From Bacteroidota bacterium (GTDB lineage: Bacteria; Bacteroidota; Bacteroidia; AKYH767-A; OLB10), in assembly GCA_016721435.1 (NCBI GenBank), contig JADKIC010000003.1, positions 117,102-181,101 of the forward strand: 64,000 bases of DNA, read 5' to 3'. Position 1 is the stretch's first letter; the number at the start of each line of letters is the position of its first letter. The notes beneath the pieces are model-generated. The model saw only the letters and a list, made by a program, of their open reading frames with translations. It was not told the DNA's origin and ran no database searches. This document shows positions 46,765 through 63,791 of this stretch, one piece after another. A program made the translations under genes and the position numbers.

Positions 46765-46781
46765 TTTATTATAGTTTGCTC

Positions 46782-46969: not shown

Positions 46970-47053
46970 GCCCGGGTGGTGGAATTGGTAGACACGCAGG
47001 ACTTAAAATCCTGTGGCCTTACAGCTGTACGGGTTCGACTCCCGTCCCGGGTA
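46970..47053 (+). tRNA. tRNA-Leu (anticodon UAA), long variable arm, no CCA encoded
   Basis: GCCCGGGUGGUGGAAUUGGUAGACAC..CAGGA CUUAAAA UCCUG..ACGGG UUCGACU CCCGU CCCGGGU A; TActTTTG -7 box upstream. Confidence 0.85.
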
Positions 47054-47165
47054 CAAAACAGAGCGAAGAAACAGAACCAGAGCGATGTTTCAAGCTCTGT
47101 TTTCCCTGCTCACTCGCACTGTATCCTCGCTCTTAAATAGTATCTTAATTATAAATCCCTTTTCA
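47054..47165 (+). repeat. Copy 1 of about 110-bp direct repeat following tRNA-Leu (copy 2 at 47611-47725; degenerate copy 3 at about 47870-47985)
   Basis: caaaacagagcgaagaaacaga..gctctgttttccctgctcactcgcact..cctcgctcttaaatagtatctta..cccttttcaaa repeated at more than 85% identity. Confidence 0.7.
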
Positions 47166-47230
47166 AAATAAAATCTTGAACCAACCACCTTTTTAATTAA
47201 AAGAGTTTCTCAAAAAGCACTTTCAATCCA

Positions 47231-47485
47231 ATGAAATATCACGTATATGCTTTATCAAGCACTGTTAGAAATTATATTTATGTAGGGTTAACAAGTGATT
47301 TAGACCGAAGACTAAGGGATCATCAAAATGGATATAATCCAACTACAAAACCATATAGACCATTTGAATTGATTTTATTGGAAGAACATGAAACCAGGGT
47401 ATTGGCAAGAGAGAGAGAAAAGTATCTTAAAACCAGTGCAGGAAAGAGATGGCTGCGTAGTCATAAAGTAAATATTAAATCATAG
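47231..47485 (+). CDS. GIY-YIG nuclease-family small protein
   Basis: 84 aa; YVYALSS...YIYVGLTSDLDRRLRDHQNG matches the GIY-YIG core; its stop overlaps the start of a partial tRNA-Leu copy. Confidence 0.7.
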   Translation: MKYHVYALSSTVRNYIYVGLTSDLDRRLRDHQNGYNPTTKPYRPFELILLEEHETRVLAREREKYLKTSAGKRWLRSHKVNIKS

Positions 47486-47610
47486 CTGTACGGGCCTGCC
47501 TGACTGCCCACAATGAGAACCAAGAAATTAAAACAAGTATAGATTGGTTGATGTTTATAGTTTTTAAAATAGTCGGCAGGCAGGTTCGACTCCCGTCCCG
47601 GGTACAAAAC
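47484..47610 (+). other. Partial tRNA-Leu 3' copy (variable arm to acceptor end) interrupted in the T-stem by a 91-nt insert
   Basis: AGCTGTACGGG | CCTGCCTGACTGCCC...GTCGGCAGGCAGG | TTCGACTCCCGTCCCGGGTACAAAAC. Insert ends are complementary (CCTGCCTGAC / GTC-GGCAGG) and the flanks reproduce the tRNA-Leu 3' part. Confidence 0.65.
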
Positions 47611-47991
47611 AGAGGGAGAAACAGAGCGAGAGCGAAGTTTTAAGCTCTGTTTTCCCTGCTCACTCGCACTCTTCCCTCGCTCTTAAATAGAATCTTACTA
47701 TACATCGTTTTTCAAACTAATATTATCATGTTTCTATATCTAGTCCTTTGGTCTAAAAAAAATCCCATATTCCAGTCCTGAAAATTCCTTTGCACTGTAG
47801 CTTCTTCTCGATTCATCCTGGTTTCTCAATTCAAAACAATCTTCTACCCATAAAAACCGAGAACGAGTAACAGAACGGAGGAACAGATTGTTAAATACCA
47901 GAAAAGAGTTCCATATTCCCTTTCCTATAATACTATATATTTGCACTTAGATAGTATCTTGCCATAAACCCTTTTTCAAACCTACAATCTT

Positions 47992-48276
47992 ATGTTCCCA
48001 TTCCAAAATCTTGAAGTCTACAAGAAATCCAAATTATTCCATCTTCATTGTAAGGAGATCATCCTTACCCGCAAACTCGATTCCTACGTCAGAGACCAGC
48101 TAGGGCGTGCATCATTCAGTGTTCCATTGAACATCGCCGAAGTAAGGACAGGTCGCGACATGTCACCATCATGGAACGTCCTGTCACCAGTGATGTTCCC
48201 GGTCGTATCGTCGGTATGTAGTGACAGGTCGCGACCTGTCACCAGTGATGTCCCCGGTCGTATCGTCGGTATGTAG
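47992..48276 (+). pseudogene. Four-helix-bundle protein (TIGR02436-type) truncated by palindromic array
   Basis: First about 50 aa (FQNLEVYKKSKLFHLHCKEIILTRKLDSYVRDQLGRASFSVPLNIAE) match the family; the remainder (VRTGRDMSPSW...) is translation of the repeat array. TAtaTTTG -7 box at 47936. Confidence 0.6.
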
Positions 48277-48353
48277 TGGCAGGTCGCGACCTGTCACTAC
48301 GTGATGTCCCCGGTCGTATCGTCGGTAAGTAGTGACAGGTCGCGACCTGTCAC
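48146..48353. repeat. Tandem array A: 3 perfect + 1 degenerate copies of 22-bp palindrome GTGACAGGTCGCGACCTGTCAC separated by near-identical 33-34-bp fillers (period 55-56 bp)
   Basis: Palindromes at 48146 (1 mismatch), 48221, 48276, 48332; fillers cagtgatgtccccggtcgtatcgtcggtatgta differ by 1-3 SNPs. Confidence 0.9.
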
Positions 48354-51300
48354 TACTTTGCCACCATAAACATCCTACTAAAAACGCCCTCTTCCACAGT
48401 CCCTCTCAATATATACGCTCCCTCCGGAAACTGACTCGTGTCTAATCGTATTTCTTTTTGTTGTCCGGTGTTTATTTTTTGGAGTAGTCGTCCCATCATA
48501 TCGTAGAGTGCAAGTTCCGGTACGAATACCGCAGATGGAAGACGGATGATGAGTTCATCTACCGCAGGGTTGGGGAAGAGCTGCAGCATGTTTCCTAATG
48601 TTTCATTCAATCCTACACAACCGGTGATCATGATGCTGTCTCTCGCCATGCAGCCAATGCTATCACGAATCTCTACCCAGTATTGTCCCGGTCCGTTGAT
48701 CACCAAGCTCGTATTGCTGCTGCCGTCCTGCCAGAGATGGGAATAGCCCGGCACACCTTGTAGCGTGTAGGGATATCCACTGCCGCAAATGACAGTATCG
48801 CTGCCGAGTGTAAGTGGGACATTTAACTCCGTCATGCTGATCTGAATGGTGTCGTATGAATCCTGGCAGCCTCCTGTTACATGTAACCAATAGGTGCCCG
48901 GTCCAAATGCAGTGTAGGTCGAAGCAGTGCTTCCATCCTGCCATTCGTAGTTGAGAAAGGTGGTGTTGGGAATGATCGTATAAACATTGCCGGCGCAAAT
49001 CGTAGTGTCTTTACCGATCTCCACATTGCCGTACGTGAATCCTTGTGTGAAGGTGATGGTATCGCTCGCGATACAGCGGTTGGTGTCAACAGCTACGACC
49101 CAATAGGTGCCGATGGTGTTTACGCCATAGCTGGTGAAAGAAGTGCTGTTGTCTTGCCACACAAACGACTGCCAGTTATTGCCAATGGATAAGATAGCGA
49201 AACTGCAAAGGATGGTGTCCGGTCCGAAATCAATCGGTGCTGCCGTGATGGTTTCAACGATAAAGGTATCTATAACGGCACCGCAGTAACCAAAATACTT
49301 CATGGTGAGCGTGTCGATGCTTCCTGCAATGGAGCCCGTTAGTTCAATGGTGCTGTCTGTGGCATTACTCACCGTTCCGGGTCCGTGGTGCATCCAAATG
49401 GTAGAATCGCCCGGTAAGGCATAGGCGACTTCAAATGTTTCCGTGACATTCACACAAATTTTTCGTGGTCCGGATATGCGTGGCGTACTGAGGAGCTCAA
49501 TGCCCTTTACAAAATTCGGCATCGCCCAACCAAACCATAACGGGTTGGGATTATTTAGGAAATCTACAGTATATCCACACGCAGTACCGGCAAGATTGGG
49601 CTGATCAATATAGTCAATATAGAACTGATCTCTTGAAATCCATATGCGTCCATCAGGGCCTAAACTCATGTTGGCAAATTGTTTGGTTGTCGTTCCGGTA
49701 AATGGATCTAAACGGATTTCAGAAGCCAGAATTGCTGCAGGTGTACCCGCGGCCATATTGTACTGAAACACTTTTCCCTGTCGCAAAAGTCCAACATATA
49801 ATTTCGAATTGTCTGGAGAGAATTCAATGCCGTAAGGTGTTTCATTGACTAAAGAACTGTAGGTGATTTCAAACGGATTCGAAGCAATTCCTGTGTTTTT
49901 ATTGAAATCGGCAACACGTACGCGGTTGGGTAAAACGGTTGAGTTGATGCAGTATGCTACCTTGAGCCCGTCATTTGAAAATTTTATTTCTCCGATACCT
50001 CCGTTAAAACCTCCGTTAGCAAATGGGGAAATGACAGGAGTGGTTGCAAGTCCTGCAGCACTGAGTAAATAGGAATAAATCGTATCTCCGTCAAAGGATG
50101 CTGCAGAGATCCAGATGTCAGTGCCGTTGCCATGATACGTGCCTCCTACATGTTCATTGATTTTACTCCGTACCGGAAGATTTTTTTGTCCGGTGATGAC
50201 ATCTCCTAAACCACCATTGAGCGAAAGATCAATCACGCTGTATTTTAAACCTCCTGTATATTGGTTCTCGCCGCAATCTGCTGTGAAGAGATAGTAGAGT
50301 GTAGTGGATCCCGGTTTCGGTGCAAGCAAACATCCTTGTGTAGAGGAATAGCATCCGGCGAGTCCGCTTCCATTGGGCATAGACTGATGATTGCGGTTCC
50401 ATACTGTTAACCCATCGGTGTAAAGCAATAAATTTCCATCGCGATCAGAGAGAGAAGAGGTGCATTCGTCGGCAATACTTTGTCCGGGAACAGCACTATA
50501 GCCGACTACCGGAAAACTTGTACCGGAGAAATGCAGAGAGAAATTCGGCAAATACCAGTTCTCTAACATGCCCGCATCTCCGCAATCTCCAATTTTGAAA
50601 TAGAAGACCTCAGACGTATCGCTGCATTGATTGCTGTTTGCAATGTTATAAATGTAATGACTGCCCGGCGTATTAAATGTCTGTATAAAAGTTTGTATCG
50701 TCCCCTGATTTACACCATCCAGCACCCATTGCGCGGAATTGGAATTGGTGCTGCCGTCGTTAAAATTTAAGGTGCTCCCAATGGCATAAGGTCCGCTGGC
50801 CGGGGCTACAACAAAGAAGGCCTGTGCATCACAAAGTACTTCTACGATTTTTGTAATGCTTTCTTCACACGTAGAATCACTGCTGTTCACAGTTAATGTA
50901 ATCGAATAATAGCCGGGACTGGTAAACACATGCGTTGTATTGGCAGAGGTGGAGATGAGTTGGTTGTTCACATACCATTCATAGGCAATTGCACCGGCTG
51001 AAGCGTCCGAAAAATTTAAACTCCCGCCAATGACAACCACATTATTACTCATGTTGAAGTCAGCAATGATGGGGTTTAGGCAAGTAGGCTGGCAGGAAAC
51101 AGATTGAAGTAAACTTGCCCGTACACCGGTAATTGCAGCTTGCATGCGATCGCTTTGTCCGGTGGTGAAAAGAACTTTGCAACTGTTGAGGCCATAGTCC
51201 ATGTAATTTTCGATGAGATCATTTTGATCTCCTAATCCTCCAACACCAACTGGCCGGAATGGATTGTTGGGGCTTAAATCGTCATCATCGCTGTTGCAGG

Positions 51301-52111
51301 TGTTGGCAGTGAGCGGACATCCTACAGCTCCTGTACTCTGGTCGGGGGGTGTGTCGCAAACTTTATCTCCATCGGTTTGGCAGTTGTTGTTGCCACAAGC
51401 CCCTTCAAAGGTATGATAGAGCCCGAGATAATGTCCCGCTTCATGTATCAATACTTTAGTGGCATCAGGGCTATTGCCAAAATAAGCCGCTTCGTTTACG
51501 ATACCGTCTTCATCATTTCCATGTGATGCCGGTAAATACGCATATCCTGCAACACCACTACCGCCTCCAAGAGATGTAATTGAATTCACTACCCAAATAT
51601 TCAGGTAGTAATTGGGATTCCAACGGATGAGATTCTTTAACGTGTCATCATCATTTTCGGATATCATATCCGTTAGTGTGGATACCACTCTGTTGATGCC
51701 GGTAGTGTAATTTCCGTTTTCATCCTGCGATGCCAGACAAAATTGTATGTTGGTATTTACACCATTACCGGTTTGAAAGGGTCCGGTGTTTGAAAAGGCC
51801 TGATTGAGATACTGTATGGCAGTATTAACTTGCGCGTTTGAAATGTTTTCGGGTCCGTTGTTGTGAATGATATGCACCACTACAGGAATTGTCAGCACAG
51901 TATTGCTTTGCCGGTAAACGGATAATTGTTGGATTTTCTGATAGATATAGTCATTCATTTCCCGCATCCGGTTTCGGTAATCGGGATCACGGGACAGTTT
52001 GGAGTGGCGATGCTCGTCGCTGGAACATCCGGGAAGTGGTGCTATTTGCGGGACTTGTGCCCGGCTAAGGCCGCTGAATAACAGCAGCACGAGTAAGATT
52101 AATTTTTTCAT
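48353..52111 (-). CDS. M43-family (pappalysin/cytophagalysin-like) zinc metalloprotease, multi-domain, with T9SS C-terminal sorting domain
   Basis: 1252 aa; signal peptide; HEAGHYLGLYHTFEG zincin motif; repeated Ig/PKD-like segments; CTD tail LQLFPNPAVDELIIRL...AYILRGTVEEGVFSRMFMVAK. Confidence 0.75.
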   Translation of the reverse strand: MKKLILLVLLLFSGLSRAQVPQIAPLPGCSSDEHRHSKLSRDPDYRNRMREMNDYIYQKIQQLSVYRQSNTVLTIPVVVHIIHNNGPENISNAQVNTAIQYLNQAFSNTGPFQTGNGVNTNIQFCLASQDENGNYTTGINRVVSTLTDMISENDDDTLKNLIRWNPNYYLNIWVVNSITSLGGGSGVAGYAYLPASHGNDEDGIVNEAAYFGNSPDATKVLIHEAGHYLGLYHTFEGACGNNNCQTDGDKVCDTPPDQSTGAVGCPLTANTCNSDDDDLSPNNPFRPVGVGGLGDQNDLIENYMDYGLNSCKVLFTTGQSDRMQAAITGVRASLLQSVSCQPTCLNPIIADFNMSNNVVVIGGSLNFSDASAGAIAYEWYVNNQLISTSANTTHVFTSPGYYSITLTVNSSDSTCEESITKIVEVLCDAQAFFVVAPASGPYAIGSTLNFNDGSTNSNSAQWVLDGVNQGTIQTFIQTFNTPGSHYIYNIANSNQCSDTSEVFYFKIGDCGDAGMLENWYLPNFSLHFSGTSFPVVGYSAVPGQSIADECTSSLSDRDGNLLLYTDGLTVWNRNHQSMPNGSGLAGCYSSTQGCLLAPKPGSTTLYYLFTADCGENQYTGGLKYSVIDLSLNGGLGDVITGQKNLPVRSKINEHVGGTYHGNGTDIWISAASFDGDTIYSYLLSAAGLATTPVISPFANGGFNGGIGEIKFSNDGLKVAYCINSTVLPNRVRVADFNKNTGIASNPFEITYSSLVNETPYGIEFSPDNSKLYVGLLRQGKVFQYNMAAGTPAAILASEIRLDPFTGTTTKQFANMSLGPDGRIWISRDQFYIDYIDQPNLAGTACGYTVDFLNNPNPLWFGWAMPNFVKGIELLSTPRISGPRKICVNVTETFEVAYALPGDSTIWMHHGPGTVSNATDSTIELTGSIAGSIDTLTMKYFGYCGAVIDTFIVETITAAPIDFGPDTILCSFAILSIGNNWQSFVWQDNSTSFTSYGVNTIGTYWVVAVDTNRCIASDTITFTQGFTYGNVEIGKDTTICAGNVYTIIPNTTFLNYEWQDGSTASTYTAFGPGTYWLHVTGGCQDSYDTIQISMTELNVPLTLGSDTVICGSGYPYTLQGVPGYSHLWQDGSSNTSLVINGPGQYWVEIRDSIGCMARDSIMITGCVGLNETLGNMLQLFPNPAVDELIIRLPSAVFVPELALYDMMGRLLQKINTGQQKEIRLDTSQFPEGAYILRGTVEEGVFSRMFMVAK

Positions 52112-52304
52112 AGGGATGGATAAATTGCGTGGTTAATAGAGGGTTAAGATATAAATATTTATTTGAATTGTTGAAAAGACACTGAAAATCATTGAAAAAA
52201 TGACATGTTTTGGATGATTATAGAGATAAATTAAACAAGTCATGGGGTGCATTGTTTACCTTTGTGGGCACGTTGGATGGCTGTCGGCTGACCGTGCAAA
52301 AACT

Positions 52305-52799
52305 ATGTTGGATAAAATCAATCTCCCTAAACCCGTCTGGATCGTTTTCGGTTTCCTTTTCACAGGACTGGGCATTGCCGGTTTTATCTTGCCGATGATG
52401 CCGGGATTGGTGTTTTTTATTTTGGCGAGTTTTTGTTTTGCGAAAAGTTCCCCGCGCATGCTGCGTAAAATTTTAGCACATCCTCAGATAGGTCCACAAA
52501 TTATGGATTGGAAAAGAGGAAGGGGGATGCGCATGAAGACAAAAGTTCTGGCCATTTTACTCGTAACCATCAGTCTCTCGTTCAGTGCCATATTTATGGT
52601 GAAGTTGGTGTGGGTGAAATGGATTATTTTTTTCTCCATATTCGCAATCACTGCTTATATTTTATCTGTTAAAACAAGAAAGAGTAAACCCGCAATAGTA
52701 CCTATACCTCAATCCACTGAATATGGCTCCGTCAAATCCCTTGAAAACACTAAGGAAGTTCACCACTCCTCTCAAGTCTCCACTCAGAGGGGGAAATGA
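52305..52799 (+). CDS. DUF454/YbaN-family inner-membrane protein
   Basis: MLDKINLPKPVWIVFGFLFTGLGIAGFILPMMPGLVFFILASFCFAKSSPRMLRKIL conserved core; start set to ATG 52305. Confidence 0.6.
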   Translation: MLDKINLPKPVWIVFGFLFTGLGIAGFILPMMPGLVFFILASFCFAKSSPRMLRKILAHPQIGPQIMDWKRGRGMRMKTKVLAILLVTISLSFSAIFMVKLVWVKWIIFFSIFAITAYILSVKTRKSKPAIVPIPQSTEYGSVKSLENTKEVHHSSQVSTQRGK

Positions 52800-52821
52800 T
52801 TCCGATGTCGGCGAAGTGTTA

Positions 52822-53631
52822 ATGCTCGTCGCATCATATGATAAGAAGAATCTTTTAGTAAGTGAAGAAAAGTATGACCTGAACGGTGAATTGGAAGAAG
52901 TACATACGTTCAATTACGATGATCGCGGAAATCTCATCGAACATATTTTTGAAATTCCTTCCGATAATATCAGCGAGCGTTTTCTGACTACCCGTAACGG
53001 GGATGGATATCCGTTAATGATTATAAAGTATTATGGTGAAGATCCCGGTGAGAAAACGGAATATACCTACGGTACCCATGCGCAACCAGTAAAAATTCAT
53101 CGCTACGATGCGGATGGTGAATTTGAAGCGGAGGAAGATTTGCTGTATGATGATCAGTCTAGATTGATGAGCAGAAAAATTAATTCACCGGCAGAGGGTA
53201 ACCGGGAGTTTCGTTTTAGTTACGATGAAAAGGGGAATCTGGCCGGTGAAGAAGAATACGATAAAGATGGTAAGTTGGTGGCGAGTGTGAAGCTGGATTA
53301 CGATGAGGAAGGGAAGGAGACAATAGTGGCGAAGTTTAACGGTGAAGGAAAGTTGATTTCACGTCAGCTTTCAGAGTATGATGAATTGGGAAGATTGAAA
53401 CGGAAGGTGTCCAATGGTTTTTATACGCGGGTGAGCGATTACGAGTACGATGAACTGGGACGCGTGACGGAAGAAGCTTTGTCGGATGGTAATGGATTTG
53501 TGATTTCACGGAACCGCATGGCGTACGACGATGGTGGTCGCTTATTAGAGGAAACCGTATACGAAACGGATTTAACACGCGCCGGGCGAGATACACATCT
53601 CTCCAGCCGCTATGAATATGAATTTTTTTAA
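52822..53631 (+). CDS. RHS/YD-repeat-containing protein (short, no signal peptide)
   Basis: About 12 copies of xYxYDxxGxL motif at 20-22-aa spacing (SEYDELGRLKRK, YEYDELGRVTEE, AYDDGGRLLEE). Confidence 0.5.
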   Translation: MLVASYDKKNLLVSEEKYDLNGELEEVHTFNYDDRGNLIEHIFEIPSDNISERFLTTRNGDGYPLMIIKYYGEDPGEKTEYTYGTHAQPVKIHRYDADGEFEAEEDLLYDDQSRLMSRKINSPAEGNREFRFSYDEKGNLAGEEEYDKDGKLVASVKLDYDEEGKETIVAKFNGEGKLISRQLSEYDELGRLKRKVSNGFYTRVSDYEYDELGRVTEEALSDGNGFVISRNRMAYDDGGRLLEETVYETDLTRAGRDTHLSSRYEYEFF

Positions 53632-53686
53632 TAGGATAAAACTTCCTGTTCAACAGGTTGTTCTATCCATGTAATAGAAAAAGAGA

Positions 53687-55636
53687 ATGGCATATAAAAA
53701 TCTGCAACATTTTATTAAGGTGCTTGAAGCAGCAGGCGAGTTGGTGCGTATTCGTGAATATGTGAGTCCGAAGTTGGAGATTACGGAAATCGCTGACCGT
53801 ATTTCCAAACAATATGGTCCCGCATTGTTATTCGAGAACACAGGTTATGATTTTCCGGTGTTGATCAATTCCATGGGGACAGAGAAGCGGATGGCGATGG
53901 CACTTGGAGTGGAAAAATTGGATGATGTGGCCGCGGAGATTGAACAACTTTTTAAAACGATGACGGGGCCTAAGCATTCATTTTTGGATAAGTTGAAAAT
54001 GCTTCCTCAATTGGGAGAAATTGCCTCCTGGATGCCGAAGGAAGTGAGTGGGAGAGGAGCCTGTCAGGAAGTAGCGATGAAGGATCCGGATATTACCAAA
54101 TTGCCTGTATTGACGTGCTGGCCGGAAGATGGGGGTCCCTTTGTCACCTTGCCCGTCATCCAAACCCGCGACCCGCATACCGGTATTCGCAATGTAGGTC
54201 TTTATCGGATGCAGGTCTTTGAACCCACCATGACCGGTATGCATTGGCACCGGCATAAAGTATCCGCTCGTCATTTTAATGAATATAAAAAGCTTGGACA
54301 GCGTATGCCCGTTGCCGTTACTATCGGCGGAGATCCGGCCTATACTTATTCCGCCACGGCTCCCTTGCCCGATGGTGTGGATGAATTCATGTTGGCGGGA
54401 TTTCTTCGGAAGAAGCGCGTGGAGCTGGTAAAATGTCTGACGATTGATATGCATGTTCCTGCAGATGCAGATTTTGTCATTGAGGGCTATGTGGATCCGA
54501 ACGAAGAGTTTATTCTTGAAGGTCCCTTTGGTGATCATACGGGCTATTATTCCCTCGCGGATTATTATCCCCGTTTCCATATAACGGCTATCACTTACCG
54601 AAAAGATCCTGTCTATCTCTGTACCATTGTGGGGATCCCGCCTCAGGAAGATGCCTGGATCGGAAAAGCCACCGAACGCATTTTTCTGGCGCCGATAAAG
54701 ATGACGATGGTTCCGGAGATTGTGGACATGGTTCTACCTGTAGAAGGTGTGTTTCATAATCTAGTGATTGTTAAGATCAGAAAAGATTATCCCGGTCAGG
54801 CGCTGAAGGTGATGAATTCGCTCTGGGGTGCCGGCCAAATGATGTTTACCAAAATGATGGTGATTGTGGATGGTGATGTGAATATTCACAATCAGGTGGA
54901 AGTGGCGCAGTATATCGCCAATCATGTGGATCCGTTGCGCGACATTACTTTTTCTCAAGGACCTACAGATGTACTCGATCATAGTTGTTCACGTATGGCT
55001 TTCGGTGGAAAGATGGGCGTGGATGCAACTGCGAAGCTGGAAGAGGAAACATTGCCCGGTGCACTTTCTGACAAAGTAATTATCGGAGAATTAAATAAAT
55101 CTGTTCCTGCTATTTTGGAAGCATCTAAAATGTATTCTGAAATCAGGGAAGTAAATAGTTCATTGCTGGATATCGGCGTACCATTGGTGTTTGTTTCCAT
55201 AGAAAAGAATCGCAAAGGTCATGTAAAGGAGCTCGCCGGAAAATTACTGGAGATGGACGCGTTTCGTTTAGTGAAGGTGCTGATCTTTCTTGAACATACC
55301 ATGGACATTGCTGATGTGGCCGATGCCGTCTGGCGTTTCTCCAATAACTTCGACCCTAAACGCGACCACTTTAATTTCCCTGCCGGTAAACAGGGAGAAG
55401 TGAATCATATCGCTTTCGACGGCACACGTAAATTGAAAGAATTTGACGGTTTTGATCGCGATTGGCCTAATATTTTAGCTTCCGATGAAACAACTATGAA
55501 TCGTATAGATGCTATTTGGTCGAAGCTGGGTTTGGGTCCAATGATTCCTTCGCCCTCCCGAAAGTACAGTCGGCAGTTGTATGCAGGTGGTGCTGTTGCT
55601 GATCCGGAAGCGTTAAGTAATCCGGTTGCAGAATAG
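53687..55636 (+). CDS. UbiD-family (prenylated-FMN-dependent) decarboxylase, extended C-terminus
   Basis: N-terminus LQHFIKVLEAAGELVRIREYVSPKLEITEIADR...GPALLFEN typical of UbiD/menaquinone-biosynthesis decarboxylases. Confidence 0.75.
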   Translation: MAYKNLQHFIKVLEAAGELVRIREYVSPKLEITEIADRISKQYGPALLFENTGYDFPVLINSMGTEKRMAMALGVEKLDDVAAEIEQLFKTMTGPKHSFLDKLKMLPQLGEIASWMPKEVSGRGACQEVAMKDPDITKLPVLTCWPEDGGPFVTLPVIQTRDPHTGIRNVGLYRMQVFEPTMTGMHWHRHKVSARHFNEYKKLGQRMPVAVTIGGDPAYTYSATAPLPDGVDEFMLAGFLRKKRVELVKCLTIDMHVPADADFVIEGYVDPNEEFILEGPFGDHTGYYSLADYYPRFHITAITYRKDPVYLCTIVGIPPQEDAWIGKATERIFLAPIKMTMVPEIVDMVLPVEGVFHNLVIVKIRKDYPGQALKVMNSLWGAGQMMFTKMMVIVDGDVNIHNQVEVAQYIANHVDPLRDITFSQGPTDVLDHSCSRMAFGGKMGVDATAKLEEETLPGALSDKVIIGELNKSVPAILEASKMYSEIREVNSSLLDIGVPLVFVSIEKNRKGHVKELAGKLLEMDAFRLVKVLIFLEHTMDIADVADAVWRFSNNFDPKRDHFNFPAGKQGEVNHIAFDGTRKLKEFDGFDRDWPNILASDETTMNRIDAIWSKLGLGPMIPSPSRKYSRQLYAGGAVADPEALSNPVAE

Positions 55637-55759
55637 TATTAAAGGGAAAAAAGGTGTTGTAAGTATTTAACGTTTTTTGTTCTTTAAGAAATTGACTTTT
55701 GTAAGGTCTTTGCTTAGTTCAGCTTTTTTATACCTCTTCCGCAAACGAAATTTGTTTTC

Positions 55760-56623
55760 GTGAAAGGGATCCTTTATCTGTTACTGATTGTTGCGCTCAG
55801 TTGCTCCTCCTGTGAAAAGGAATCGGAGATCATCTCCGGCAATGTAGCACCTTCTGATCCTACGGTTTCATCGGTGCAGATCAGGCAATATGTACAAAAA
55901 GTCTATCTGGCGATCATTGGCACCGTTCCTTCCGATACGGATATGGTCAATGAGATTAATTTTCTGGCAAGGAATAATTGCTCGGTGAATGATCGTTCAA
56001 ATTTATTGGATCGCCTGTTTGCAAATCCCTTATATAAGACCAGTCAGTATGTATCAAAAAATGATCTGCTGCTGGAAGCCATTACATCTTCAGAAATTAA
56101 TGATATCATCGATGATATTCAGGATGACTTAAATAGTACAAGTACGATTGATACAGCCATTCTGAATCGTCAACTCTTTGCCATGCAACAATTGCAGACG
56201 GCTAAGCTGGATTATATCAACGGAACAATAAATCTGGCGGAAGTGCAGCGTCGGATGACAGCCTCTGTGGCCTTCACCTATGCCAATGGTTATGGAGATG
56301 CCTGGATCGAAGCGGTGTTTGGCTTCTTCCTCTTTCGTTTACCCACTTTGGATGAATTGGATCAGTCCGGTACGATGCTGGAAGGTTTCCCTGCTTATCT
56401 TTTTCTGCAGACCGGTGCATCAAAGGAAGATTTTATTCAGATATTTTTCTCTTCCCGTCCTTTCAAAGAAGGCCAGGTGAGAGCATTGTTCAGAGAGCAT
56501 CTCTATCGTGAACCCAATACTTCAGAGTTGATGAATTATACAAACAGTTTCAGTAATACGATGGATCATAAATTACTGATGCGTCAAATATTCTTAACCA
56601 ATGAATTCCTGCGTGGTGAATAA
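55760..56623 (+). CDS. Hypothetical lipoprotein
   Basis: GTG start, lipobox LSCSSC; no known domain. Confidence 0.4.
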   Translation: MKGILYLLLIVALSCSSCEKESEIISGNVAPSDPTVSSVQIRQYVQKVYLAIIGTVPSDTDMVNEINFLARNNCSVNDRSNLLDRLFANPLYKTSQYVSKNDLLLEAITSSEINDIIDDIQDDLNSTSTIDTAILNRQLFAMQQLQTAKLDYINGTINLAEVQRRMTASVAFTYANGYGDAWIEAVFGFFLFRLPTLDELDQSGTMLEGFPAYLFLQTGASKEDFIQIFFSSRPFKEGQVRALFREHLYREPNTSELMNYTNSFSNTMDHKLLMRQIFLTNEFLRGE

Positions 56624-56633
56624 ATTCAGAAAT

Positions 56634-57101
56634 ATGTTGTTCCTCCTCCTTGCCGCAAGTTTCACAGCCTGCATGGAACCGGAACCGATCTATGAGGTGG
56701 AACCCATTCTCGTGGAAGTCCAGGGTGGTCAAAAGAAGGCCGTTAAAACAGATCGTCAGTTTGTTTCCGGTGCTTTTGCCGATGTCATGAAGAAGCAGAT
56801 TACTACCTCTGAATTGGATGAGGCCATTTATTGCTATGATGCCAATAGTGATAAGGAAATGATACGCGATATGATCATCCGTGATTTGCTGAAGCGTACT
56901 GCAGCCGTCATTCCATCTGTATCAGAGATGCGCAGTGACCCTGAGAAATTTGTAGGAGATACCTACCGTCGTTTCTATAAAAGAGATCCCTCTGATCTGG
57001 AACGATGGACGGTGCAGAATCAGTTGGCACAGGATACATCAATAAGTCCGGTGATGGTATTTTATGTGTTTATGAGTGCTGAAGAATATAGTTATTTCTA
57101 A
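56634..57101 (+). CDS. Hypothetical lipoprotein
   Basis: MLFLLLAASFTAC lipobox signal. Confidence 0.4.
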   Translation: MLFLLLAASFTACMEPEPIYEVEPILVEVQGGQKKAVKTDRQFVSGAFADVMKKQITTSELDEAIYCYDANSDKEMIRDMIIRDLLKRTAAVIPSVSEMRSDPEKFVGDTYRRFYKRDPSDLERWTVQNQLAQDTSISPVMVFYVFMSAEEYSYF

Positions 57102-57109
57102 ATAAAGAT

Positions 57110-58414
57110 ATGAATCGTAGAAAATTTGTAAAGTCATTGGGTCTGTCAGCCGCAGGTGCGTTTGCAGTGCCGTATATATTGCCTTCCGGTCGACTCTTTG
57201 CCGCCACCGGTACCCGCCTCGCGAACCATGTCGTGCTCTGTCTCTATGCAGGTGGGGTCAGAAACCTGGAGTCTATCGATAAAGCGGAAGGAAATCTGAT
57301 GCCGAATATCCTTCGCGGAACAGAATCCATCTCTCCGGATATCCTTCCCGGCTTTGATCCTGTTCCTGCGCCGGTACTGGCAACGCCATTGTAGGATTAT
57401 GGTACTTTGTTCAAAGGGTTTCGCTATGCGAATATTTCTCCCGGACATTATCAGGGACATTTTACGGCTATCACCGGCCGTTATACCGGATATGATATTA
57501 ATTTCAATCAACCGGCTGCGTATCCGACCTTGTTCGAGTATTACCGTAAACACAATAGCCCTTCCAATTCCGCCTTGAATGCCTGGTGGGTGTCGGATCA
57601 TATAGGGGAGAATGAAAATCTCGCCTATAGCATCAGTCCCGATTATGGCGCTCAATACGGTGCCAATTTTTTTAGTCCGTTGAGTGTTTTTACGAGTGGG
57701 AATTATAAACCCATTGACTTGTGTCGTTCGTTCACTACCACCGAAAGACAGAAGATGGGTACCATGCTTGATTTTCTGAATCGTTCATTTGTAGAACCTG
57801 TCCTTCAAGAAGTCCCTATGGTGCGGAATACTGAACAGGATCGTATAGCTATACAGAGTTTTTATGGAAATCTCGCCACACGTCAAAAGAACAATCAACT
57901 CTGGGATCCCTGGCAGATTGGTACAGGGATGAATAGCGATATGTTCAATATGTTCTTCGCTGAGGAAATTATAAAGGAGTTTTCCCCCGAACTAACGGTG
58001 GTGAATATGACCGGTGTGGATGCAGGTCATTCGAATTTCACGGAGTATTGCAATAATATGCGTAAAGCGGATTATGCTGTTGGCCGCTTGTGGAATACCA
58101 TCCAGCAAACTCCCGGTATGGTGAATGATACCGTACTTATTGTTGTTCCTGAAATAGGTCGCAATACACAGCATAATTCTATTCGTGATGCTTACGAACG
58201 CTATGGTCTGGATCATTCTGATACGATGTCGCGCGAAATATTTTGTCTCGTGGCAGGCCCTGCCGGAAAGGTGGTGCAAAATAATGTGATTACAAATGTG
58301 ACCGGTGAGAGTATAGATATTGTTCCAACCATTGCACATGTACTTGGATTCCATCCCGACATTCCGCAAGGATATCTTCCGGGAAGTCCCTTGTATCAGG
58401 CATTCACCAGCTAA
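57110..58414 (+). pseudogene. DUF1501-like (sulfatase/alkaline-phosphatase superfamily) Tat-secreted protein with in-frame TAG at 57393-57395
   Basis: Twin-arginine signal MNRRKFVKSLGLSAAGAFA; ORFs 57110-57394 and 57407-58414 are in the same frame, separated only by an amber codon. Confidence 0.5.
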
Positions 58415-58422
58415 GAAGAAAG

Positions 58423-59306
58423 ATGCAAACGATGAAAATATATTTGGTGGTCGCGATGATGGCATTGGTGGTATGTTCCTGCAGTAAGGAAGAAAATCCG
58501 TTTCCTGCCGAAGTGTCGGACGATGGTGGCTCAGTTTCAAACCCTGATCCGAATAGTATCTCCGGCTTGCATAAAAATATTTTTGCTCCCCGATGTGCGG
58601 TCCCCAGTTGTCATGGCGGTACCTTTGAACCGGATTTCAGAACAGTGGAATCCACCTACTACACGCTCGTATATCAGCCGGTAGTGAAGAATACCATCAA
58701 TGAAAAATATACCTACAGAGTTGTACCGCGTGATACCGGAAAATCATGGTTGTATCATCGCGTCACCAGGCATGATTCATTGATTCCGCGTATGCCGATT
58801 TATATGGATGCGTTGAGTACAGAAGATCTCGGTCATATAAAAACATGGATATTGAACGGTGCACCGGATGCAAGAGGTGTATTGCCTGTGCTGGCGAATT
58901 TACCTCCAAAAGTGGCAGGATATAACGCGTATGATGCTTCCTTTAACCGCATCGATGTTTTGCGGTCCAGTTGGAGTGTGGCTTTTCCTGCTCCCTACGG
59001 ACAACAAATTAATTTCTGGGTGTTTGTCGATGATGAGGAAACAGAGGATAAAAACTATTGTTAAATCAAATGAAATTTAGTCTTGATCCAAATGATTTTT
59101 CAAATGCGGTTTCTGCCAATGCGACCTGGGTGAATGGTCCCGTTTGCTGGGGATGGGTGGTAAGTGTGAACACCGGACAATTTCCTGCGGGATCAAAAGT
59201 GTTTATGCGGTACTATATCAAAGATCCCATCCTGAATCAGGTGTTTGAAATGCCGAAGAATACTTCCTATTCTTATTATAAAACAAATTTCTCGTTCCAG
59301 CTATGA
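58423..59306 (+). pseudogene. Hypothetical lipoprotein with C-x4-CH motif, frameshift near 59060
   Basis: Lipobox VVCSCS; PRCAVPSCHGG motif; C-terminal 82-aa ORF 59058-59306 overlaps in +1 frame. Confidence 0.35.
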
Positions 59307-59737
59307 ACAGAATCCTGTTCTTCCTGCTGCTGATGGCAGTCCTTTCTTCCTGTAAAAAAGAAGAGTCGCCTTTTTCAGAAGTGCCGCGCATTGAAGTGCG
59401 TTCTATTTATCCGGATAGCGTGAAAGCGTTTACCGACAGTATTGTGGTAGAGATTTATTACGAAGATGGTGATGGAGACCTCGGTGAAAATAGTCCCTTT
59501 ACGCAGAATTTATTTCTGGTGGATCAACGCAATCAATTGCAGTTCGGATTTCGAATCGGTAGAATTGCCGCTGAAGGAACACCCGCTATCCGCGGAACGA
59601 TGAAAGTAGTGTTGCCCTATACAAATCTTGTAAACAATGCCGGTCCTGAACAATTATTTTACAAAGTGAGGGTGGTCGATAGAGATGGTAATACTAGTAA
59701 TACAGAAAATACAGGCTCCATTGTTGTCGTAGAATAA
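59303..59737 (+). CDS. Hypothetical lipoprotein
   Basis: MNRILFFLLLMAVLSSC lipobox. Confidence 0.4.
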   Translation: MNRILFFLLLMAVLSSCKKEESPFSEVPRIEVRSIYPDSVKAFTDSIVVEIYYEDGDGDLGENSPFTQNLFLVDQRNQLQFGFRIGRIAAEGTPAIRGTMKVVLPYTNLVNNAGPEQLFYKVRVVDRDGNTSNTENTGSIVVVE

Positions 59738-59740
59738 AAA

Positions 59741-60871
59741 TCAGGGAATACTTAGCCAGCTTTGAATAGGGTAGTGGTCGCTGAGTTTTCCGTTCTTCAC
59801 CCGAAAGGAATGCGTTTGAATATTTGGACTATGTAGTATGTAGTCGATTCTGAAATTGATGGGAAGTTTAATATAGGTGCTTCCAAATCCTTCTCCTTTT
59901 TCTATAAACGAATCGTCTAAATCATTTTTTAAGGTTTGATAAGTGTATGAAAATGGTGTATCGTTAAAATCTCCACAAAGAATAATCGGGTAGGGGCAAG
60001 CAGCCATATGTAATTTCAGTTCATCTACCTGTTGACTTCTCTTAATGGCGGCTTTCTTTATTCTCCTCAATATATTTTTCGTGTTTTTGAGTTTGTTGTT
60101 ATTGCTTTCCAGCGAATCAGGATATTCCAGAAATTCATACTCTTCCTGTTTAAAATGATTAGATTGAAAATGCGCATTGTAAACGCGAACCGTTTTGTTG
60201 TTGATATCAAGATCAGAATAAATACAGAAATTGGACTTCCCTTCTTCATAAAAGACAGTCCCTTCATCAAGAATCGGAAATTTACTGAAAGTCGCTAAAC
60301 CCCAATGACTGGTTTTACGAAGAGTGATACTGTACTTGATCGTTCCGAAATTGGCATTGATGAGTTTTTTTATGGTATCGTTATTTTGAAAATTACCTTT
60401 ATCATCATGAAAATATTCCTGAATGCAAAGAATGTCCGGCTGCTCTTGTTTGAAGAATTTGAAGATGGACGCTCTTGTTTCCAGGTTGCCGGTCCAGTTG
60501 TATAAATCAAAAAGCCGTACATTATAGGAGAGCACTTTGAATGCATTTTTCGGTTGCATGACTTCTACCTTGAACAAACCGGGCCGGTACAGTTGACTGC
60601 ATTTATCATGGCCGATGAGTATCACTGCCGCAGAGAGAAAGGCGAGACGACTTTTTCTGCTTGTCCAGAACATGACAAAAAGTAGGTTGATGAGTAACAG
60701 AACCGGAAAGGTATTGGATAAAGGCTGTAAAATCCAGAGTTTCTCGGGACTGATCCGCATCGCTGTCTGACAACAGAGTAAAAGCAAAGCCACGAAGAGG
60801 TTGATACTAAAAATAAGTTTTAACCAGATATTTCTATCCTTCTTCTCATTTTTAGTAGTTCTTTCATCCAT
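59741..60871 (-). CDS. Endonuclease/exonuclease/phosphatase (EEP) family membrane protein
   Basis: N-terminal TM helices, then LSYNVRLFD...ILCIQEYF...GDFNDTP...SDHYPI EEP motifs; ATG 60871 (ORF-track GTG start at 60892). Confidence 0.7.
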   Translation of the reverse strand: MDERTTKNEKKDRNIWLKLIFSINLFVALLLLCCQTAMRISPEKLWILQPLSNTFPVLLLINLLFVMFWTSRKSRLAFLSAAVILIGHDKCSQLYRPGLFKVEVMQPKNAFKVLSYNVRLFDLYNWTGNLETRASIFKFFKQEQPDILCIQEYFHDDKGNFQNNDTIKKLINANFGTIKYSITLRKTSHWGLATFSKFPILDEGTVFYEEGKSNFCIYSDLDINNKTVRVYNAHFQSNHFKQEEYEFLEYPDSLESNNNKLKNTKNILRRIKKAAIKRSQQVDELKLHMAACPYPIILCGDFNDTPFSYTYQTLKNDLDDSFIEKGEGFGSTYIKLPINFRIDYILHSPNIQTHSFRVKNGKLSDHYPIQSWLSIP

Positions 60872-60954
60872 TTTTGAGTAAAATATTTTCACGATAAAGT
60901 AAAATAAAATTATCCATAATTAATCCATATGCAGATGCATTACCTTTGCAAAAT

Positions 60955-61794
60955 ATGAACAATCTGAAACTTGGTTTCTCCTCCTGTCCGAACGACACTT
61001 TTATTTTTGAGGCGCTTGTTAACAATCGTTTAGGAAGTTCTTTAATTGTGGATCCGGTGATCATGGATGTGGAAGCCCTGAACAGACTGGCAGAAAATGC
61101 TCATCTCGAAGTGTCGAAAATGAGTTTCGCCGCCTTTCCTGCTGTTTCGGCTAACTATCAGATACTTTCTTCCGGCAGCGCTCTTGGTCGTGGTTGTGGT
61201 CCCTTGATTGTTAGTAAGGAACCGATTGATATGTCGAATCTTACTTCAATGGAAATTGCCATTCCCGGAAAAAATACAACAGCGAACTTGCTCTTGAGTA
61301 TTTTCTTTCCTCAACTGACCCTGAAAACGGAAGTTTTATTTTCTGAAATTGAAGATAAAGTACTTAGCGGCGAATTTCCTCTCGGACTAATTATTCATGA
61401 AAGCCGGTTTACCTATGCCGAAAAGGGTTTGCATAAAGTGGCCGATCTGGGGGAACTTTGGGAGCAGCGATACGGGTTGCCAATTCCTTTGGGGTGTATA
61501 GCAGTCAAAAGAAACATGCCGGAAGCGGAAAAGATGGAAGTTCAAAGTCTGGTTCGGCAAAGTGTGGAATGGGCTTTCCGTCATCCCGAAGATTCCGTCG
61601 AATATGTTGGTAAACATGCTTCGGAGATGAGCAGGGAAGTGCAGAATATGCATATCGGATTATATGTGAATAATTTTTCTTTAGATTTGGGCGAGGAAGG
61701 CAAGCAGGCCATTCGCATGATGTTCAAACTGGGCCACGACTCCGGTTTCTTCCCGGAAGCAATGGAGCCAATATTTATTAATGATTTAATTTGA
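60955..61794 (+). CDS. mqnD: 1,4-dihydroxy-6-naphthoate synthase (futalosine-pathway MqnD; MqnA/MqnD family)
   Basis: LKLGFSSCPNDTFIFEAL N-terminal motif characteristic of MqnD; ATG 60955. Confidence 0.65.
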   Translation: MNNLKLGFSSCPNDTFIFEALVNNRLGSSLIVDPVIMDVEALNRLAENAHLEVSKMSFAAFPAVSANYQILSSGSALGRGCGPLIVSKEPIDMSNLTSMEIAIPGKNTTANLLLSIFFPQLTLKTEVLFSEIEDKVLSGEFPLGLIIHESRFTYAEKGLHKVADLGELWEQRYGLPIPLGCIAVKRNMPEAEKMEVQSLVRQSVEWAFRHPEDSVEYVGKHASEMSREVQNMHIGLYVNNFSLDLGEEGKQAIRMMFKLGHDSGFFPEAMEPIFINDLI

Positions 61795-61798
61795 GAAT

Positions 61799-62763
61799 AT
61801 GATAGTTGTAACCGGCGCAGATGGTTTCATAGGTAGTTGCTTAACCGGCAGATTAAATGAACTGGGACATGAGGATCTGATTCTTGTGGATGAATTTCAT
61901 ACTCCTGCAAAGGAAAAAAATCTGTTGGGGAAGAAGTTTGAGAAAAAAATTCATAGAGATGCTTTTCCGGAATGGCTGGCTGAAAATTTCAAGGATGTAG
62001 ATTTTATTTTTCATATTGGTGCCCGCACAGATACCACCGAGTTCGACATGGAAATATTTAACCGGTTGAATCTTTTTTACTCGCAAAGTATCTGGAATAT
62101 TTGCAGCGATCATGGAATACCATTGGTGTATGCCTCCTCTGCAGCAACATATGGAGAAGGTGAATTTGGCTACGACGATGATGTTGCCGGAGTGCCGCGC
62201 TTACAACCCTTGAATCCCTATGGTTGGTCGAAACAGTATTTCGATTGCTGGGCCCTGGAGCAGAAGAAACAGCCTCCGCAATGGGCGGGATTGAAGTTTT
62301 TTAATGTGTATGGCCCCAATGAATTTCACAAAGGAAGAATGGCTTCCGTCATTTTTCATGCGTTTAATCAAATCAAGGAAAATGGGAAGGTGAAGTTATT
62401 CCGATCGCATCGTACCGATTATAAAGATGGTTGGCAACTACGCGATTTTATCTATGTTAAAGATGTGATGAAGTATGCATCTTCCTCATGAAAAATAAGG
62501 TGCCCTCGTCCATTTATAACCTGGGTACCGGAAAAGCCAGATCCTTCTTTGATCTTGCGTCCGCTACTTTTAATGCTTTGAATGTTGAACCAAATATTGA
62601 GTTTATCGATATCCCTGCCGATATTCGCGACAAGTACCAGTATTTTACGGAAGCGAAGATGCAAAAGTTGATAAATGCCGGATATAATAAACCCTTTACT
62701 TCGTTGGAAGAAGGTGTAAATGACTATGTGAAAAATTATCTTTCTACAGCTAAATACTATTAA
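61799..62763 (+). pseudogene. hldD: ADP-L-glycero-D-manno-heptose-6-epimerase, frameshift near 62490
   Basis: MIVVTGADGFIGS Rossmann start, YxxxK region, C-terminal 91-aa ORF 62488-62763 continues in +1 frame. Confidence 0.75.
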
Positions 62764-62772
62764 CCGGAAGGA

Positions 62773-63204
62773 ATGCAAGCATTGAAGCCACTCTTGAAAT
62801 CGAAAATAATTCGCTATTTAATTTCTGCCGGATTAGCCACCTGGGTGGATGTGGTGGTGTACTTCGTTTCTTTTAATTATTTGTATAAAAAAGAGGACAT
62901 CGATATTTTTGGCTTCTATACCGTTTCCGCACCTACCGCCTCATTGATCCTGAGTTATACCATCGGACTCCTGACAAATTTTACCCTCACAAAATTTCTG
63001 GTCTTTAAAGAATCAGAATTGGAAACCCATAAGCAATTGTTCCGTTATGTGATGGTCGCCATCCTGGTCCTCATCCTGAATTATTTCTTAATGAGTTTCC
63101 TCATCCGTCAATTGGAATGGTATCCTACATTGGCCCGGGCCGTGTCAGCGGTGAGCATCGGCGTTTTGAGTTTTGTGGTACACAAATCGTTTTCATTTAG
63201 GTAG
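62773..63204 (+). CDS. GtrA-family polysaccharide-synthesis membrane protein
   Basis: 143 aa, 4 TM helices, GtrA-like N-terminus (IRYLISAGLATWVDVVVYF). Confidence 0.65.
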   Translation: MQALKPLLKSKIIRYLISAGLATWVDVVVYFVSFNYLYKKEDIDIFGFYTVSAPTASLILSYTIGLLTNFTLTKFLVFKESELETHKQLFRYVMVAILVLILNYFLMSFLIRQLEWYPTLARAVSAVSIGVLSFVVHKSFSFR

Positions 63205-63446
63205 TGACAGGTCGCGACCTGTCATCATTAACAAAACGATCATAGATTACATCACAGTGACAGGTCGCGACCTGTCATCATTAACAAAACGATCATAGTT
63301 TACATCATGGTGACAGGTCGCGACCTGTCATCTTTAACAAAACGATCATAGTTTACATCACAGTGACAGGTCGCGACCTGTCATCTTTAACAAAACGATC
63401 ATAGTTTACATCACGGTGACAGGTCGCGACCTGTCACTACCTGTCA
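63204..63446. repeat. Tandem array B: 5 copies of the same 22-bp palindrome (GTGACAGGTCGCGACCTGTCA[T/C]) at exact 53-bp period with near-identical 31-bp fillers
   Basis: Palindromes at 63204, 63257, 63310, 63363, 63416; fillers cattaacaaaacgatcatagtttacatcaca with 1-3 SNPs; first palindrome overlaps the gtrA stop codon, and only about 7 nt separate the array end from the merR stop. Confidence 0.9.
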
Positions 63447-63791
63447 TCACAACTGAGCCTTTAATTCCTCTAAAAATTTTCTGGTACGAAGTAAAGTTTC
63501 CTTGATCTCTACATCTCTCGCCAGGGTATCTCCTTTTTGCTCGAGCATCTTTTTCGCTCCTTCTAAGGTATAGCCCTTTTCTTTTACCAAATGAAAAATG
63601 ACACGCAGATTGGCAACATCTTCTGCAGTAAATAAACGGTTGCCTTTTTTATTTTTCTTGGGCTTTAATATATCGAATTCCTTCTCCCAGAATCTGATCA
63701 GCGAGGCATTGACCTGGAATAGCTCTGCCACATCTCCGATAGGATAGTACAGCCGCTCAGGTTCTTTGTCGAAATCTATTATTGGTGCCAT
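63447..63791 (-). CDS. MerR-family transcriptional regulator
   Basis: N-terminal HTH (YYPIGDVAELFQVNASLIRFWEKEF) and coiled-coil C-terminus. Confidence 0.75.
   Translation of the reverse strand: MAPIIDFDKEPERLYYPIGDVAELFQVNASLIRFWEKEFDILKPKKNKKGNRLFTAEDVANLRVIFHLVKEKGYTLEGAKKMLEQKGDTLARDVEIKETLLRTRKFLEELKAQL

Follow-up and report, generated by a model that had tools for sequence, protein, structure and literature searches.

Tandem palindrome arrays in a Bacteroidota genome as probable local clusters of a double-foot GTAG REP linked to group 4 RAYTs

A 64,000-nt stretch of DNA from a Bacteroidota bacterium (assembly GCA_016721435.1, contig JADKIC010000003.1, positions 117,102 to 181,101 of the forward strand; hereafter the window, in whose positions all coordinates are given) carries two tandem arrays of one short palindrome, which we analyzed as candidate repetitive extragenic palindromes (REPs). 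An earlier note had described a 22-bp palindrome in two tandem arrays, and this description proved real. The 22-mer, GTGACAGGTCGCGACCTGTCAC, is a perfect dyad with the centre TCGCGA and has nine matches in the window at up to 3 mismatches, compared with 0 matches in 100 dinucleotide-preserving shuffles of the same DNA. While the dyad was read correctly, the true unit is longer than had been stated: it is a 28-bp perfect palindrome of the form GTAG-[T/G]GACAGGTCGCGACCTGTC[A/C]-CTAC, bounded by GTAG and CTAC "feet". The version found in the window is GTAG-TGACAGGTCGCGACCTGTCA-CTAC, which is complete at 48273-48300 and 48329-48356.

Array A (48142-48356) is bordered on one side by what remains of a four-helix-bundle gene and on the other by the 3' end of an M43 peptidase gene. 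It comprises a degenerate copy (48142-48169, GTAAGG..CCAT), the half-site CCTGTCAC (48180-48187), which was counted as part of the array, and three good copies (48218-48245, 48273-48300, and 48329-48356), with a 27- to 28-nt filler, GTGATGTCCCCGGTCGTATCGTCGGTAT. The 22-mer matches are located at 48145 (3 mismatches), 48221 (0), 48276 (1), and 48332 (0), and the copies are spaced by 76, 55, and 56 bp. The period of 55 to 56 bp reported previously therefore applies to the later units and not to the first one. Tandem Repeats Finder (TRF) gave a period of 55, 3.1 copies, and 94% matches. The 55/56-bp unit corresponds to the 76-bp unit minus 21 bp that lie between two direct repeats of CCTGTCAC.

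On the right side, the array runs into a 1,252-aa gene encoding an M43 metallopeptidase with PKD and type IX secretion system sorting domains according to Pfam (48353-52111, minus strand). Its stop codon, which reads CTA on the plus strand (48353-48355), is the TAG of the last palindrome's foot on the minus strand. On the left side, the remnant of a gene for a four-helix-bundle (23S rRNA intervening-sequence) protein (47992-48276, plus strand) matches PF05635 over residues 5 to 50 only. Its homology ends at ..NIAE, exactly at the start of the first palindrome, and the remainder of the open reading frame (ORF) is read-through of array A (VRTGRDMS...); homologues of this ORF run on as NIAEGSGKFSK. 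We also observed that 18 of 18 database homologues of the N-terminal half (P0241 to P0258) are non-syntenic fragments of 51 to 88 aa, and these ORFs look like a family of decaying, dispersed small genes. An empty site for array A was sought through these homologues and none was obtained, all of them being non-syntenic fragments.

Array B (63201-63447) contains five palindrome cores with a 31-nt filler, CATTAACAAAACGATCATAGTTTACATCACA, and its exact 53-bp period was confirmed. The 22-mer matches are at 63204, 63257, 63310, and 63363, each with 1 mismatch (a terminal C>T), and at 63416 without mismatch; TRF reported a period of 53, 4.4 copies, and 96% matches. Intact feet are found only at the outermost positions, with GTAG at 63201-63204 and CTAC at 63437-63440, and a duplicated half-site, CCTGTCAT (63440-63447), was counted as part of the array. 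Two genes converge on the array, which takes up all of the space between them: a GtrA-family gene (62773-63204, plus strand; PF04138) and a MerR-family gene (63447-63791, minus strand; PF13411). The GtrA stop codon TAG (63202-63204) coincides with the last three bases of the first GTAG foot, and the MerR stop codon (63447-63449) sits 7 nt past the last CTAC foot. REP feet now provide the stop codons of two genes, those for the GtrA-family protein and the M43 peptidase.

In single-stranded form, whether DNA or RNA, the 28-mer forms a hairpin with a 12-bp stem and a 4-nt loop (-11.5 to -12.2 kcal/mol for DNA). This matches the size (20 to 40 bp) and G+C-rich stem-loop of GTAG-type REPs, and the conserved GT[AG]G foot is present as well. 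Transcripts of the two arrays fold far better than shuffled sequences (z = -14.3 and -7.7). An Rfam scan of the entire window placed no RNA family over the arrays and returned only an M-box riboswitch and two tRNAs.

The fillers are repeated inside each array and differ between the two arrays, as TRF matches of 94% and 96% bear out. They are private to the window's lineage and were not found at other loci. The two fillers have in common only the 7-mer GTGATGT beside the palindrome (shuffle p of about 0.04), so the proposal that they are diverged copies in inverted orientation is weak and not supported. Instead, each array appears to have amplified its own local flank. Arrays built in a similar way from palindrome and filler were observed at other fetched loci (designated by L-numbers): L235 (60 bp, in frame inside a transposase gene of the type described below), L073 (279 bp), L028 (29 bp), and L132 (41 bp).

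Regular palindromic repeats of 22 to 28 bp with intervening sequences of 27 to 31 bp recall a degenerate or orphan CRISPR array or another adaptive array. We give this reading virtually no credence, in agreement with the earlier note. The intervening sequences are 94 to 96% identical within each array, Rfam gives no match to a CRISPR direct repeat, and other strains hold rearranged filler and half-palindromes rather than new or unique spacers. Moreover, the repeat stands alone between unique flanks at the great majority of the remaining fetched loci, and neither spacers matching a protospacer nor nearby cas genes were seen.

The distribution of the palindrome was investigated by scanning one genome per species (596 Gb) for the 18-bp core GACAGGTCGCGACCTGTC. 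The core was found at at least 119 genome loci, compared with an estimated chance expectation of about 9 matches for a palindromic 18-mer, and in 7 viral contigs; the window's variant was found at at least 120 metagenome loci. Within the window, the palindrome occurs at 2 loci per 64 kb, and restriction to these two loci had been named as grounds for rejecting a dispersed REP-like family. The palindrome is widely dispersed. Among the matches listed, many belong to Bacteroidota, including Pontibacter, Flavobacterium, Chitinophagaceae, Saprospiraceae, and Paludibacter, and others to several members of the candidate phyla radiation (CPR), Nitrospinota, Omnitrophota, Chloroflexota, Fibrobacter, Spirochaetia/Leptospiraceae, Acidobacteria/Aminicenantes, Zixibacteria, Ignavibacteria, Gammaproteobacteria, and Bacillota. 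Thus, the core has unique flanks and is spread over about twelve or more bacterial phyla. Several genomes have 4 to 6 exact copies among the matches listed, for example, Pontibacter mucosus and a Poriferihabitaceae chromosome.

The large majority of copies read GTAG[G/T]GACAGGTCGCGACCTGTC[C/A]CTAC, and the GTAG..CTAC feet, complete in the window at the two sites given above, are likewise seen in the large majority of about 300 copies elsewhere. The G..C and T..A positions form a compensatory pair, and both forms occur side by side on the same contigs. A rough ORF-based placement assigned 50 copies to tandem, 20 to convergent, and 11 to divergent settings, with 31 scored as intragenic and 21 at locus edges.

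Some of these loci have features of their own. In CPR (Patescibacteria), the palindrome was observed inside long ORFs without breaking the frame, namely, in the linkers of MutL (L087:3590) and UvrC (L097:6799), between the GTPase and C-terminal domains of YchF (L089:7144), in a Ser/Thr kinase (L013:1861), and near the N terminus of a DUF3048 protein (L108:3595). In Pontibacter (L001, L027, L056, L072, L078, L079, and others), it lies within longer shared repeats (ctatagttctatagtt..., ...ttatactttg), which suggests composite elements around the REP that resemble miniature inverted-repeat transposable elements (MITEs). Other palindromes headed by GTAGGGG, such as gtaggggcgggtttcaaacccgccc and gtaggggcggcccc, were found near the REP at L049:~1375, L015, L090, L119, and L081, in Nitrospinota, sponge-symbiont, and uncultured genomes, which seem to harbour several families of GTAG REPs.

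Gene neighbourhoods were then compared between loci. All-against-all BLAST of the 1,033 ORFs within 1.5 kb of a palindrome revealed no recurrent neighbour; the single six-member cluster corresponded to the transposase discussed below. A Pfam scan of 150 flanking ORFs gave 169 families, none of which occurred more than 2 times. These scans ruled out a linked cargo gene, and with it the GIY-YIG and four-helix-bundle genes located near array A. Since no neighbour family recurs, the same results also rule against a role of the arrays as multimerised operators, bound by a dimeric protein such as the adjacent MerR regulator, which they would titrate or position. The perfect dyad symmetry with its central TCGCGA and the MerR gene abutting array B would fit such a role. 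However, both arrays are located at gene 3' ends and not at promoters, the same palindrome stands beside unrelated genes in many phyla, MerR is absent from the 25 most recurrent neighbour families shown, and the palindrome is missing from relatives that have the same MerR gene. In addition, the compensatory change between T:A and G:C preserves pairing. The binding-site explanation, one of those offered earlier, was thus not borne out, and we consider it extremely unlikely.

We then investigated whether the palindrome is associated with a REP-associated tyrosine transposase (RAYT), using a regular expression for HUH...Y1 motifs followed by a hidden Markov model built from database homologues. 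A look for such a gene near some copies had been suggested, and a RAYT-like ORF was indeed found at the palindrome in 24 of the loci listed (9 of 119 genome and 15 of 120 metagenome loci). The palindrome lies inside the RAYT-like ORF in 21 of these 24 loci, in frame, between the motifs NH[IV]H and YIxxNP. It is translated there as VGTGRDLSL, and the T/A variant found in the window would read VVTGRDLSL. At many RAYT loci, for example, L135, L177, L207, L231, and L235, additional palindromes flank the gene. The nine genome loci belong to Bacteroidota, one Magasanikbacteria (CPR) genome, Aminicenantes, and Zixibacteria.

The RAYT-like ORFs match Pfam Y1_Tnp and NCBIfam NF047646 (REP-associated tyrosine transposase; E values of 1e-14 to 1e-17). 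A profile of 35 homologues had as its best match in the PDB the E. coli enzyme TnpA_REP (4ER8; E value of 1.5e-4), with the HUH and Y regions aligned; a PDB search with one single RAYT sequence returned nothing, and 4ER8 was reached only by the profile. In the protein database, we found 3,470 clusters of RAYT homologues, several of which are named "REP element-mobilizing transposase RayT" by their source and include Pontibacter and Segetibacter proteins. Among the best 120 of these clusters, 95 carry GRDLS in the loop between HUH and Y, and many show tandem expansions of whole or half palindromes in this loop, for example, VGTGRDDAGTGRDDAGTGRDD... and RDLSLQRDLSQQRDLSLQ. The alignment consensus (..MPNHIHGIIE.., ..WQRSFHDHIIR.., ..YIxNNP..) displays the motifs of TnpA_REP subclass 2.4, and the palindrome has the double foot of this subclass (5' GT[AG]G and 3' C[TC]AC). 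Taken together, these comparisons indicate that the palindrome is tied to one RAYT clade, TnpA_REP subclass 2.4 or group 4.

This clade and its REPs have been described. For subclass 2.4, which corresponds to RAYT group 4 of Bertels et al., Quentin et al. (2018) reported REPs with three G-C pairs at the bottom of the stem as well as REPs with a "double foot" of 5' GT[AG]G and 3' C[TC]AC (PMC6006769). REP copies flank the gene, the protein has the motifs NH[IFV]H, WQ, and YIxNNP, and the subclass occurs abundantly among Cyanobacteria and Bacteroidetes and is scattered elsewhere (PMC6006769). Bertels et al. (2017) found group 4 in 17 bacterial classes, with flanking 16-mers of low copy number, about 14 per replicon (PMC5581495). 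As far as sequence comparison can tell, all features listed for subclass 2.4 are found for the present element. This includes the feet, the long stem rich in G+C, a variant whose stem bottom has three G-C pairs (GTAG-GGACAGG), the low copy number, and the occurrence in Bacteroidetes and scattered phyla. In contrast, a 28-mer nearly identical in about twelve or more phyla and clean tandem arrays of palindrome and filler are not described there. The exact palindrome DNA and the peptide GTGRDLS were not found in any paper of the literature searched, and the sequence is likewise absent from the supplement of PMC6006769.

For the tandem arrangement, Di Nocera et al. (2013) described large REP clusters in which the units and the DNA next to them are repeated in tandem, for the most part downstream of ORFs (PMC3733652), a description that fits arrays A and B exactly. 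The GTAG super-family clusters of that study (SMAG, Pseudomonas, and E. coli) share with our element the GTAG terminus, short loops, location mainly downstream of ORFs between convergent or co-directional genes, reiteration with flanking DNA, and in-frame copies in genes that include repair genes, here MutL and UvrC. They differ in that GTAG is unpaired and present at one end only, whereas here it is at both ends and base-paired. In Bacteroidetes, only CGTC-type REPs were reported in that survey, and GTAG repeats were not (PMC3733652).

Bacterial interspersed mosaic elements (BIMEs) of E. coli are similar in being tandem REP mosaics with conserved linkers in intergenic 3' regions, with copy numbers that vary between strains and an associated RAYT (the 4ER8 family). 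In BIMEs, however, two REP types alternate in opposite orientation and are joined by defined linker motifs, and binding of IHF, gyrase, and Pol I is known for them, while no host-factor sites are known here. The present element has a single symmetrical palindrome whose linker is a locus-specific flank, and an E. coli-type BIME was rejected on these grounds. REPINs, the paired REP elements of Pseudomonas and E. coli with group 2/3 RAYTs, are likewise short palindromes that owe their dispersal to a domesticated Y1 transposase present in one copy. They are inverted REP pairs with a spacer, present in hundreds of copies and inherited vertically within a lineage, whereas our element is a single perfect palindrome of low copy number common to many phyla. 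A single palindrome could derive from a REP doublet by central deletion (PMC6006769).

A further explanation offered earlier was a MITE, to which we add the solo terminal hairpin of an insertion sequence (IS) of the IS200/IS605 type. The RAYT-like proteins do match Y1_Tnp, the IS200-like transposase family, and palindromes do flank the RAYT gene. On the other hand, what different loci have in common is just the 28-mer, without internal sequence, and its flanks are unique. Of the properties of a MITE (100 to 400 bp, terminal inverted repeats, target-site duplication), the 28-mer has none, no terminal inverted repeats or target duplication being seen beyond the palindrome. Furthermore, the flanks of the RAYT-palindrome units do not recur between fetched contigs, unlike those of IS copies, and the clade has been placed with REPtron-type genes and not with IS (PMC6006769). 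We therefore regard a MITE or IS origin as very unlikely. The arrays are very probably local tandem clusters of a 28-bp double-foot GTAG REP tied to group 4 RAYTs. The REP/BIME-type palindromic unit proposed in the earlier note agrees with double-foot REPs and with published tandem REP clusters, and its statement that no known repeat family matched is superseded by the double-foot REPs of subclass 2.4 (PMC6006769). Since this class is already described, the arrays are a real but ordinary find, made mildly notable by the near-invariance of the 28-mer across phyla and by the remodelling of gene ends.

This remodelling could be followed at the site of array B, where the convergent order of the GtrA and MerR genes is kept in relatives both with and without the array. 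In three relatives (L261, L262, and L264; GtrA 77 to 88% identical), there is no palindrome and the genes are separated by 59 to 111 bp of unrelated intergenic DNA; their GtrA proteins are 8 to 10 residues longer (..FSFKV....*). The empty site and the longer GtrA indicate that the REP arrived in the window's lineage, after its split from the empty-site relatives, and replaced intergenic DNA and the last GtrA codons. The REP of array B thereby supplied the new GtrA stop codon. At its GtrA 3' end (~1930), the empty-site relative L264 reads aaaGTAGGGAaaG where the array of the window starts. Seven bases of this sequence match the REP foot and the start of the stem, but in L261 and L262 the match is limited to GT[A/G]. 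No GTAG-like motif was seen at NIAEG in the four-helix-bundle homologues. The sequence in L264 may reflect a target preference or chance and is an unproven hint.

Compared across strains, as had been proposed, both arrays vary. The closest fetched assembly is GCA_963852085.1, with flanks 96 to 99.7% identical, and none is identical to the window. Closer strains, with GtrA 98 to 100% identical, carry other mosaics at the site of array B: L120, L121, L122, and L252 to L260 have 155 to 219 bp in which whole palindromes are mixed with right halves (TCGCGACCTGTCAT) and a second filler. For array A, four copies are also present in the relatives L123 and L124, and strain L268 has units of 76 to 78 bp instead. 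These differences indicate that local turnover of the clusters between strains is rapid.

RAYTs, which are HUH/Y1 single-strand nucleases, would recognise a hairpin with a GTAG foot in single-stranded DNA. We propose that an enzyme of the subclass 2.4 RAYT clade dispersed the palindrome, which would have crossed phyla together with the RAYT gene. Because this gene carries a copy of the REP, its transfer would also transfer the REP, which would explain the identical sequence in distant phyla. Each array would have begun as one or two nearby copies, and the palindrome together with a piece of local flank would have been amplified by slippage or unequal recombination between copies. Instability of the palindrome at its symmetry centre may have given rise to the half-site duplications and deletions; the frequency of such breaks, with half-sites in many lineages and in the RAYT loop, points to hairpin or cruciform processing or to template switching.

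The same observations can be arranged differently: the REP may have arrived long ago and its cognate RAYT may since have been lost, so that the arrays now change purely by replication slippage, unequal crossing-over, and SbcCD-type processing of palindromes, the hairpins being useful or harmless at gene 3' ends. Several findings fit such a relic. No RAYT was seen in the window or in fetched sequence of related lineages, and the internal copies of array B have lost their GTAG and CTAC feet, as expected of recombinational rather than transposase-driven amplification. Deletions between direct repeats of 8 bp give rise to variant units, and in many lineages the breakpoints of half-palindrome duplications fall at the symmetry centre. 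On the origin of the element, the evidence does not separate a relic from a RAYT-linked REP. The RAYT was looked for in only about 2% of a typical genome, however, and group 4 RAYTs are usually present in genomes with their REPs (PMC6006769). We consider loss of the RAYT a doubtful but real possibility.

At the RNA level, the arrays would probably act in transcripts as stable 3' stem-loops at gene ends. Such stem-loops would protect the upstream mRNA from 3' exonucleases and damp read-through between convergent genes, and a hairpin starting at the stop codon may hinder translation termination. E. coli REPs are said to offer precedents for RNA-level roles in work by Newbury from 1987 and by Liang, Rudd, and Deutscher from 2015, the latter reportedly also dealing with REPs near stop codons. 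For the arrays of the window, we infer that these effects would be by-products and not a dedicated function.

Several points weigh against the assignment to RAYT-linked REPs or against parts of the scheme. The NF047646 scores of the RAYT-like ORFs (53 to 63 bits) are below the 80-bit equivalog cut-off, and the proteins linked to the palindrome are best taken as RAYT-like relatives and not as certified equivalogs. No RAYT gene was found in the 64-kb window or in the approximately 80 kb fetched from the same or closely related lineages; present-day mobilisation in the window's organism is thus unproven, given a search that covered these sequences. The in-frame motif could partly be kept as protein sequence. 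We know of no demonstration of RAYT-catalysed REP transposition for subclass 2.4. Binding or cleavage of a GTAG-footed hairpin as single-stranded DNA by a RAYT is reported only for the E. coli enzyme (PMC3479197, PMC8266576). The RNA-level roles proposed for the arrays are drawn from the E. coli precedent, and a scan for intrinsic terminators detected no T-tract after the hairpins, which are therefore not classical intrinsic terminators.

Other features of the window were recorded as well. Near array A, an 84-aa GIY-YIG gene (47231-47485) lies in a cassette (within 46970-47700) flanked by direct repeats (approximately 47031-47147 and 47582-47697) that correspond to the 3' part of tRNA-Leu(taa) and downstream sequence. 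It looks as if the cassette was inserted into the tRNA-Leu gene with regeneration of its 3' end; in relative L123, the cassette is present in tandem triplicate (L123:3001-4560). Similarly, the 3' end of tRNA-Gly(gcc), aatctcgtctttcgctccaaaaaa, recurs about 110 bp downstream (46660-46850), just after a perfect 15-bp inverted repeat (46793-46824), which suggests another small insertion into a tRNA gene. Next to the GtrA gene, a gene for an NAD-dependent epimerase (61799-62763) has a 1-nt deletion at 62469 in comparison with L120 (gtgatTgaag versus gtgatgaag) that splits it into ORFs of 230 and 91 aa; this is either a pseudogene or a homopolymer error of long-read assembly. The M-box (magnesium) riboswitch (RF00380) lies at 7636-7803 on the minus strand (147.7 bits), and an 11-bp tandem repeat, ATAAAATAGAT, is present in 5.4 copies (93% matches) at 27043-27101 and is unrelated to the arrays.

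A bolder version of the RAYT-linked scheme would make the REP a cross-phylum, self-seeding replicator. The near-invariant 28-bp unit would travel as an in-frame "seed" in its own RAYT ORF, its TAG feet would rewrite gene 3' ends, it would be inserted in frame into linkers such as those of MutL and UvrC in CPR bacteria, and the tandem and half-palindrome arrays, in host intergenic DNA and in the RAYT loop alike, would be footprints of an enzyme-linked, centre-directed process rather than of plain slippage. We regard this version as unlikely; if true, such a replicator would act directly on protein termini.

The assignment to REP clusters of group 4 RAYTs removes a CRISPR-like false lead and provides a concrete, searchable REP sequence for Bacteroidota and CPR. 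GTAG REPs had been reported as absent from Bacteroidetes in the earlier survey. The locus is a clean natural case of a REP altering gene ends, with 8 to 10 residues of GtrA and two stop codons affected. The fast turnover of the clusters could be used to mark strains of Bacteroidota in activated sludge and soil. With a 28-mer that is identical across phyla and also sits in frame in the transposase gene, the element offers a tractable test system for the mobilisation of REPs by RAYTs.

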